Of a stretch of 64,000 nt of DNA, positions 36,147 through 37,931 are shown one piece after another (positions within the stretch are counted from its first letter, which is position 1; the number at the start of each line of letters is the position of its first letter). Under the pieces are notes generated by a model that worked only from the letters and a program-made list of their open reading frames with translations, made no database searches and was not told the DNA's origin. The stretch is from Escherichia coli. Lineage in GTDB: Bacteria > Pseudomonadota > Gammaproteobacteria > Enterobacterales > Enterobacteriaceae. The translations under genes and the position numbers were made by a program. The stretch lies in the NCBI RefSeq assembly GCF_030384885.1, contig NZ_CP128613.1, one strand, 5' to 3'.

Positions 36147-37475
36147 TTAACGGCCTTTAGCCAGATATTGCTTCATCTCTTCTTCCGGCACCATTCCACC
36201 TCCTGTCGCCCACACCAGATGAGTGGCATTACGCAGTTGTTCTGTGCTGAAACCTTGCATCTGTTGGTAAATTACTGATGCGCACACGCGCTGAGGCCCG
36301 GCCATACCCGCCAGTGCTGAAGGCTCAAGACGAATGTCTTCTTCCTGCGCCAGCCAGCCAAGCATGTCATACATGGTTTGATCGCTAAGGGTATAGAAGC
36401 CATCCAGCAGACGCTCCATTGCCCGCCCGACAAAGCCTGATGCGCGACCAACTGCAAGGCCATCCGCGGCGGTAAGGTTGTCGATACCAATATCCTGAAC
36501 AGAAATCTGATCGTGTAATCCAGTATGGACGCCTAACAGCATACAAGGGGAGTGCGTGGGTTCGGCAAAAAAGCAGTGAACATGATCGCCAAACGCCAGT
36601 TTAAGCCCGAATGCGACGCCACCAGGACCACCGCCAACGCCACACGGCAGATAGACAAACAGAGGGTTATCAGCATCGACAATACGACCTTGCTCGGCAA
36701 ATTGCGCTTTAAGACGCTGGCCTGCGACGGAATACCCAAGGAACAACGTGCGGGAATTCTCGTCATCAATAAAGAAACAGTTCGGGTCAGACTGCGCTGC
36801 TTTACGTCCTTCCTCGACGGCAACCCCATAATCTTGCTCATATTCCACGACCGTAACGCCATGGCTGCGCAGTTTCGCTTTTTTCCATGCCCGGGCATCA
36901 GCAGACATATGTACTGTCACCTTAAAGCCAATGCGGGCGCTCATAATACCGATTGATAACCCCAGATTTCCGGTTGAGCCCACAGCAATGCTGTATTGGC
37001 TAAAGAACTGCTTAAACTCCGGAGAAAGCAGTTTGCTGTAGTCATCTTCAAGCGTCAGCAACCCTGCTTCCAGAGCCAGTTTTTCTGCATGTGCCAGGAC
37101 TTCATAAATCCCGCCGCGTGCTTTTATGGAGCCGGAAATAGGCAAATGGCTATCTTTTTTCAGTAACAGTTGCCCGCTGATCGGTTGCTGATATTCCTTT
37201 TCCAGCCGTTTTTGCATAGCCGGAATGGCAACCAGTTCTGATTCAATAATCCCTCCAGAGGCAGCCGTTTCAGGAAATGCTTTTGCCAGATAGGGGGCAA
37301 AACGAGATAAGCGCGCATGGGCGTCCTGAACATCCTGTTCGGTCAGGCCAACATAAGGTAAACCTTCAGCCAATGAGGTCGTGCCAGGATTGAACCAGGT
37401 GGTTTCTTTAAGAGCAACCAGATCCTTTACCAACGGATACTGGGCGATGAGCGAGTTCATTTTAGCGTTTTCCAT
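36147..37475 (-). CDS. dsdA: D-serine ammonia-lyase (D-serine dehydratase), PLP-dependent
   Basis: 442-aa [34 protein letters not shown] with the PLP-lysine region SGSIKARGG. Confidence 0.92.
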
Positions 37476-37675
37476 AGTATGTCTCTTTGCGCTTCGATGA
37501 TAAATGACAGCAGGAATGTGCCCGCCAGAGCGACGACTGAAGCGATAAATGTCGCTGTCGTATAGTATTTATATGTTTCACTGAGCGTAGCGCCGCAAAA
37601 TTGTTTCATCAGCCAGAAAAACGAGTCCGTAACGATCGTGCAGCCAATCGCAATAATTTCCGGGCTGATGTCTGG
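37457..37675 (-). pseudogene. dsdX: 3'-terminal remnant of the dsdX D-serine permease gene (GntP family); the 5' part of the gene and dsdC are absent
   Basis: Minus-strand frame reads [60 protein letters not shown]... immediately upstream of dsdA and is preceded by an in-frame stop; no upstream remainder of a roughly 445-aa permease exists. Confidence 0.5.
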
Positions 37676-37931
37676 TTACAGCCACAGCACAATGATCCAT
37701 ATTTATATTTTTTCTCCGGGTGGGTGATGCCAGTCGGCATGTTTTACCTACTTGTCTGCATGGTGACTCGTTGGCGAGAACAGAGGCGGAATTGGTTACA
37801 ATTGTCCGGGAATTCTTGTTATTTTTTACTGTATTGTCGTGTCGGGTGATAGGACGTTAAGAATATCGCTGGATCTCGCCAGTGACGTCTGTTTCTGCTA
37901 CAGTGCCCGTTTTACGGCAAACGGCTTGGGT

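Follow-up and report, generated by a model that had tools for sequence, protein, structure and literature searches.

The dsdA gene in the 64-kb stretch of Escherichia coli DNA analyzed here (the window) very probably belongs to the common csc-type allele of the argW-dsd locus, in which a sucrose (csc) segment has replaced dsdC and most of dsdX and has left dsdA intact, essentially silent, and open to reactivation. A preliminary description of this DNA had presented dsdA as intact but orphaned, with its activator gene dsdC missing and the permease gene dsdX cut down to its 3′ end; that structural observation was confirmed on all three points, and the interpretation built on it is supported. The arrangement and its biology are already known and described in the literature, and what the window adds to the picture is small: a further-decayed, rare sub-haplotype of the dsdX remnant and a contrast in selection within the locus.

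The csc versus dsdCXA polymorphism is an established determinant of niche preference in E. coli. Strains carrying dsdCXA (uropathogenic [UPEC] and NMEC strains and Crohn's disease isolates) tolerate and use D-serine, with a second complete dsdCXA copy in many K1/B2 strains, whereas D-serine inhibits csc-positive strains (most LEE-positive diarrheagenic strains; phylogroups B1, D, and E), which use sucrose. Prototypic O157:H7 has a sucrose locus substituting for dsdC and part of dsdX at the argW hotspot, and cscBKAR sits there in most dsd-negative strains (PMC4366372). Jahreis 2002 and Moritz & Welch 2006 are the sources given for the substitution in PMC4366372 and PMC7486766, and Alaeddinoglu & Charles 1979 is the one given in PMC4366372 for the reciprocal phenotype. 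The csc-for-dsdCX substitution, its distribution, and the inverse D-serine/sucrose phenotypes are also treated in PMC11251922 and PMC13054288, the second of which describes a diagnostic triplex PCR on dsdX, dsdA, and cscR.

Structure and frequency of the csc-type allele

Alignment to full-length dsdX and to the O157 csc-type locus placed the start of dsdX homology at window base 37689, inside codon 374 (...GGATCATTG/TGCTGxxGCTG..., with the slash at the junction). The preliminary description had proposed such an alignment as the way to define the endpoint, which it took to be 37675; the dsdX homology was borne out, but this position falls 14 nt short of the true breakpoint and marks the codon that immediately follows an in-frame TAA (37676-37678). 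In a blastn comparison with a dsdCXA-type locus, homology ended at 37652/37689 and resumed at the 3′ edge of argW (43252); 5.56 kb (37690-43252) stands there in place of ~2.37 kb of dsdCXA-type chromosome (L002 7619-9986). The replacing DNA is cscRAKB, in keeping with the link to the reciprocal D-serine/sucrose phenotype that had been suggested from the letters.

The reference dsdCXA-type locus is annotated in the order emrY-dsdA-dsdX-dsdC-argW-yfdC, and the canonical loci (K-12 and CFT073; here MLI105 and L002) share with the window the position between emrY and argW, a dsdA product 98% identical at the protein level to that of the window, and a homologous stretch made up of the last 72 dsdX codons and a 17-nt spacer. 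Unlike them, the window has csc DNA in place of dsdX codons 1-373, the divergent dsdX/dsdC control region, dsdC, and the spacer to argW, so that 84% of the dsdX gene has been replaced together with the activator gene and the inducible promoter region. Because dsdC and the control region are among the DNA replaced, the DsdC-dependent D-serine induction of the canonical locus (PMC4366372) cannot operate in the window, in whose 64 kb tblastn found no match to DsdC at an E value of at most 1e-3.

The features of the locus are listed in Table 1. Family models matched all four csc genes at full length, with cscA, cscK, and cscB above or near the curated cutoffs and cscR recognized by LacI-family matches. 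E. coli 2013C-4282 is 100% identical over the region, and RefSeq places dsdA, a partial pseudogene, and a gene for a LacI-family regulator at the corresponding positions of that genome; given this identity to an annotated locus, chance is no issue for the observation.

Table 1. Features of the csc-type argW-dsd locus in the window
Feature	Position	Strand	Description and basis
dsdA	36147..37475	(-)	Intact D-serine ammonia-lyase, 442 aa; TIGR02035, 3SS7, RefSeq annotation in an identical genome
dsdX-dsdA spacer, 17 nt	37476..37492	(-)	dsdA ribosome-binding region (AAAGAGACATACT); sequence and alignments
dsdX 3′ remnant	37493..37689	(-)	DsdX residues 374-445; predicted pseudogene fragment; tblastn, NF007395, alignment
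Former dsdX stop codon, TAA>GAA	37493..37495	(-)	Alignments and translation
21-bp in-frame deletion site	37645..37652	(-)	7 dsdX codons gone; between two GCGATTG direct repeats
In-frame nonsense codon, dsdX Tyr378, TAT>TAA	37676..37678	(-)	Sequence, translation, alignment
Left junction, dsdX remnant/csc-island DNA	37689..37690	.	GGATCATTG/TGCTG; alignment of 8 csc-positive sequences
csc-island left end and cscR upstream region	37691..37931	.	No dsd homology; presumed site of the cscR promoter
cscR, LacI-family repressor of csc genes	37932..38927	(+)	LacI-family matches, RefSeq annotation, ATG taken from the sequence; divergent from dsdA
cscA, sucrose-6-phosphate hydrolase/invertase	38935..40368	(-)	TIGR01322, 481 bits; annotation; upstream of dsdA on the same strand
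cscK, fructokinase	40584..41498	(+)	NF006957, 504 bits (cutoff 450)
cscB, sucrose:H+ symporter (oligosaccharide MFS)	41570..42817	(+)	TIGR00882, 590 bits
Right end of inserted DNA	42818..43252	.	blastn; DUF4942 fragment annotated here in N96
argW, tRNA-Arg(CCT)	43253..43327	(-)	ARAGORN, annotation; known integration/recombination hotspot bounding the variable segment
yfdC, formate/nitrite transporter family	43403-44335	(-)	Profile matches/RefSeq annotation

The csc-type loci of O157:H7 EDL933/TUV93-0 and of EC3132 have the same order as the window (emrY, dsdA, dsdX′, cscR, cscA, cscK, cscB, argW), and the O157 locus also has the same dsdX breakpoint, an intact dsdA, and no dsdC. The two differ by ~5% at the nucleotide level over the whole region. 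Unlike that of O157, the dsdX remnant of the window has a 21-bp deletion, a stop codon for Tyr378, and no stop codon of its own, whereas O157 has extra island genes between cscB and argW (a recombinase and hypothetical proteins).

To place the allele in the species, 5426 complete RefSeq E. coli genomes were surveyed with a 2-kb query spanning the junction into cscR. The query matched in 5395 of the 5426 genomes and was covered to at least 80%, which requires reaching into cscR, in 2691; a query with complete dsdX and dsdC was covered to at least 80% in 2718. The csc-type arrangement is one of two major alleles at this locus, carried by roughly half of the E. coli genomes sequenced so far. The dsdX breakpoint was identical in all eight csc-positive sequences aligned (the window, 2013C-4282, N96, O157 AR-0428, CB8671, H14, CREC7837, and FDAARGOS_1281). 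A breakpoint shared in this way, in an allele of this frequency, points to one ancestral event as the origin of the csc-type allele, which is no lesion of this particular strain.

The dsdA enzyme and the dsdX remnant

DsdA of the window scored 809 bits against TIGR02035 (cutoff 368) over model positions 1-431 of 431, a full-length equivalog match. It aligned from residue 1 to residue 442 with the solved E. coli DsdA 3SS7, from which it differs at 9 of 442 positions, and a tblastn comparison showed that it has kept Lys118, which we take to be the PLP lysine of the 3SS7 structure. With the equivalog cutoff exceeded and this lysine in place, DsdA is a member of the D-serine ammonia-lyase family (PLP fold-type II). 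Six amino acid changes set it apart from the O157 allele and the K-12-type allele alike. Five of the six lie in the last 63 residues (380-442; window 36147-36335), namely, G380D, S402I, H407Q, A411T, and N435K, a cluster that may reflect a recombination tract or local relaxation.

The state of dsdX is different. With full-length DsdX (445 aa, from the dsdCXA-type locus L002) as the query, tblastn matched only residues 374-445 (window 37690..37496), and the NCBIfam DsdX model NF007395 aligned only over profile positions 379-445 of 445, with 97 bits against a cutoff of 618. There is no complete DsdX transporter (~445 aa, GntP family) here, and what is left is broken by a stop codon and has lost 7 codons; judged by its sequence, the remnant is a nonfunctional pseudogene fragment and does not qualify as a member of the DsdX family. 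The csc-type allele in general keeps 72 dsdX codons, for which the figure of about 70 given in the preliminary description holds, but in the window 65 are left because of the 21-bp deletion at 37645-37652, the exact place of which is ambiguous within the GCGATTG repeats. Relative to other csc-positive loci, the remnant has this deletion, Pro376>Trp, Tyr378>stop, five missense changes, and a stop loss.

The remnant frame does not close until a TGA (37457-37459) that lies 19 nt within dsdA. The sole cause of this overlap is that the dsdX stop codon TAA is GAA in the window; in the O157 and K-12-type loci, dsdX and dsdA lie 17 nt apart and do not overlap, and the 17-nt spacer itself carries a single G>A change relative to the other alleles. 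An overlap of the remnant with the dsdA start had been part of the preliminary description, and an open reading frame (37457-37675) does extend over these 19 nt, but as a stop-loss quirk of a rare sub-haplotype and not as a property of the allele. With an 80-nt query spanning the deletion junction, the deleted form was found in the best 25 of 5426 genomes, each with one 80-nt piece, and the matches listed below those 25 consisted of two pieces over 101 nt, that is, without the deletion. The alignments thus mark the remnant of the window as a rare sub-haplotype, to which the stop-loss overlap appears to be peculiar.

Expression and retention of dsdA

Published work on enterohemorrhagic E. coli (EHEC) with the csc-type allele gives an idea of how an orphaned dsdA behaves. 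Such strains do not grow on D-serine and are inhibited by it, and dsdA is silent; native dsdA upstream fragments gave 63-134 RFU, compared with 2001 RFU for a fusion to the cscA promoter (cscAp) and 257 RFU for z3622p (PMC7486766). A spontaneous deletion of 1,120 bp or 5,637 bp, or ΔcscR, activates dsdA, under cscAp or z3622p, at the price of sucrose utilization; ΔcscR EHEC becomes D-serine tolerant, and in a deletion mutant the dsdA read density follows that of cscA (PMC7486766). The laboratory-evolved EHEC variants LCV2 and LCV10B arose from the same allele as that found in the window, and in them the orphaned dsdA was shown to encode an active enzyme. Unlike the window, they have lost cscR or the whole csc locus through the 1,120-bp or 5,637-bp deletion and have dsdA fused to cscAp or z3622p (PMC7486766).

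By analogy, with the csc segment in place of dsdC and the inducible promoter, dsdA of the window would be deprived of its activator and of the DsdC-activated dsdXA promoter. It would be essentially silent or would show low basal expression from a weak internal promoter, reported in the literature on the csc-type allele to lie ~115 bp ahead of the dsdA start codon, and the cell would be sensitive to D-serine and unable to grow on it, having gained sucrose catabolism. dsdA would then serve as a functional reserve gene, and a deletion that joined it to cscAp or to some other promoter upstream would restore D-serine catabolism. The silence of dsdA and the D-serine sensitivity proposed for this haplotype are carried over from EHEC O157:H7, whose locus is ~95% identical. 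The impaired or low D-serine detoxification anticipated in the preliminary description agrees with the phenotype published for EHEC with the same allele (PMC7486766, PMC4366372). Its further claim, that dsdA expression must arise from the remnant or junction region, needs refining, as other sources are open to the gene: cscA is upstream of dsdA in the same orientation, and transcripts from cscAp reach dsdA in ΔcscR mutants (PMC7486766). Overall, the allele predicts a sucrose-positive, D-serine-sensitive strain with a dsdA that should be reactivatable.

Alignment revealed four substitutions in the 115 bp upstream of dsdA, where the reported internal promoter sits, and because of them basal dsdA expression could differ here from that in EHEC, in either direction. 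A consensus scan found no sigma-70-like promoter in 37300-38100, and none on either strand of the presumed cscR promoter region (37691..37931), a result that is uninformative for weak promoters, and a terminator scan between cscA and dsdA returned only weak terminator-like hairpins, none of them convincing, which is weak evidence either way. A reading of the substitutions near 37572 and 37597 as changes in −10 hexamers was dropped as too speculative.

The two neighboring sequences have evolved very differently. Pairwise Nei-Gojobori comparison of seven dsdA sequences (six from csc-positive loci and one from a dsd-positive locus; L004, with an open reading frame one codon longer, was left out) gave dN/dS values of 0.03-0.13 over all pairs, the highest dS being 0.25. 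When the window was compared with O157, 27 synonymous and 6 nonsynonymous changes were counted in dsdA and 2 synonymous and 9 nonsynonymous, nonsense, or stop-loss changes in the remnant (Fisher P = 2.8e-4). The contrast implies constraint on dsdA and pseudogene-like evolution of the remnant only a few bases from it, and it poses the question of what has preserved dsdA. The constraint is compatible with a function kept in csc-positive lineages and also with repeated import of alleles from dsdCXA-positive strains. The dsdA of one csc-positive sequence (L005) differs from that of the dsd-positive L002 by only 3 nt, and the low dN/dS could in part reflect such allele exchange and not selection in csc-positive lineages.

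One answer, which we consider doubtful, is that dsdA keeps a selectable, DsdC-independent expression, whether driven by the weak internal promoter of the remnant or by cscAp read-through, antisense to cscR, once sucrose has lifted CscR repression. It would explain why dsdA is intact in all seven csc-positive sequences sampled, with the dN/dS values given above, next to a remnant that evolves neutrally, and it is consistent with the position of cscA upstream on the same strand, with the failure to predict a convincing intrinsic terminator between cscA and dsdA, and with the D-serine tolerance of ΔcscR EHEC and the tracking of cscA by dsdA reads in the deletion mutant (PMC7486766). Against this, wild-type EHEC with the allele is D-serine sensitive, its native upstream fragments are weak in reporters, and the published activation required removal of cscR DNA, beyond derepression; a term search of PMC7486766 brought up no experiment on sucrose-induced tolerance. 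Purifying selection can, moreover, be mimicked by recombination with dsd-positive strains. The more specific version, that dsdA is kept by selection and expressed conditionally, for example through read-through from a sucrose-derepressed cscA promoter antisense across cscR, strikes us as unlikely; if true, it would couple D-serine detoxification to sucrose availability and not to D-serine sensing.

That dsdA is a decaying relic, bound to become a pseudogene and still intact only because the csc replacement is too recent, we regard as quite improbable. Its silence in EHEC (PMC7486766), the IS4 element inside dsdA of one sampled csc-type genome (H96), and the five amino acid changes clustered in the last 63 residues of DsdA would fit such a fate, but the csc-positive dsdA alleles have diverged to dS values of 0.09-0.25 with a dN of at most 0.015, and the remnant gained its deletion, nonsense codon, and stop loss over an equal divergence, so that there was time enough for decay of dsdA to show. 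Least probable of all, and by our estimate very improbable, is that a second complete dsdCXA elsewhere in the chromosome supplies D-serine catabolism and leaves the orphaning without phenotypic consequence. Two-copy dsdCXA strains exist (PMC7486766), as do occasional strains with both loci (PMC11251922), and some genomes of the survey have two or three dsdA places (5678 places in 5395 genomes). The 100%-identical genome 2013C-4282, the top match of the survey, nevertheless has one dsdA/dsdX place only, and a single place was found in 27 of 27 csc-type genomes of a spread sample with a query that included dsdC and 5′ dsdX. With a chimeric query joining the dsdA allele of the window to K-12-type dsdX-5′/dsdC, dsdCXA-complete genomes ranked first, and 2013C-4282 was not among the matches listed; no second dsdA or dsdX copy was found inside the 64-kb window. 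These comparisons leave the common csc-type allele, with an intact but essentially silent and reactivatable dsdA, as the reading that we prefer, and no result speaks against its structural side.

Divergence and mobile DNA around the locus

The evgS-yfdC haplotype of the window is ~95% identical both to O157 and to a K-12-type genome. Divergence over 27000-47000 (evgS-emrKY-dsdA-csc-argW-yfdC-mlaA) is high for a within-species comparison in E. coli, and about two dozen RefSeq genomes share the haplotype. Compared with O157, dsdA differs by 2.5%, the lowest value of all segments, and the dsdX remnant by 5.6%; emrK, emrY, and the csc genes differ by 3-6% and the three noncoding segments by 9-14% (the junction-cscR intergenic region by 8.7%, the cscB-argW segment by 9.2%, and the emrY-dsdA intergenic region by 14.1%). 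The last of these (36019-36146), downstream of both convergent genes, diverges more than any other segment here and has 18 mismatches and 21 gap columns in 128 bp relative to O157. A foreign or cryptic-clade origin of dsdA, considered in view of the 95% identity over the 2-kb query, was rejected, as the whole evgS-yfdC region shows a similar divergence from both comparison genomes and dsdA is its least divergent part (2.5%).

argW is a very active integration site, and the DNA between cscB and argW varies among csc-positive genomes. A short DUF4942-domain fragment is annotated there in related genomes (window 42818-43252; L007 9495-9599), hinting that cscRAKB came within or alongside an argW-integrated element, now eroded. 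In 2013C-4282, a prophage remnant of ~3.7 kb (torI, a PACE transporter, a LysR regulator, and a broken intS) lies between cscB and argW and is absent from the window and from N96 (window 43247-43330 versus L001 16268-19926), and O157 and FDAARGOS_1281 carry other island genes in this interval (recombinase, integrase).

Outside the csc-dsd segment, the emrKY efflux operon is broken just downstream of evgA by an IS2 element that the otherwise identical 2013C-4282 lacks. The element is complete (1331 bp, 32072-33402, minus strand, with a TnpA open reading frame of 136 aa and a TnpB of 301 aa) and sits 91 nt into emrK, flanked by a 5-bp target duplication (32067-32071 = 33403-33407).
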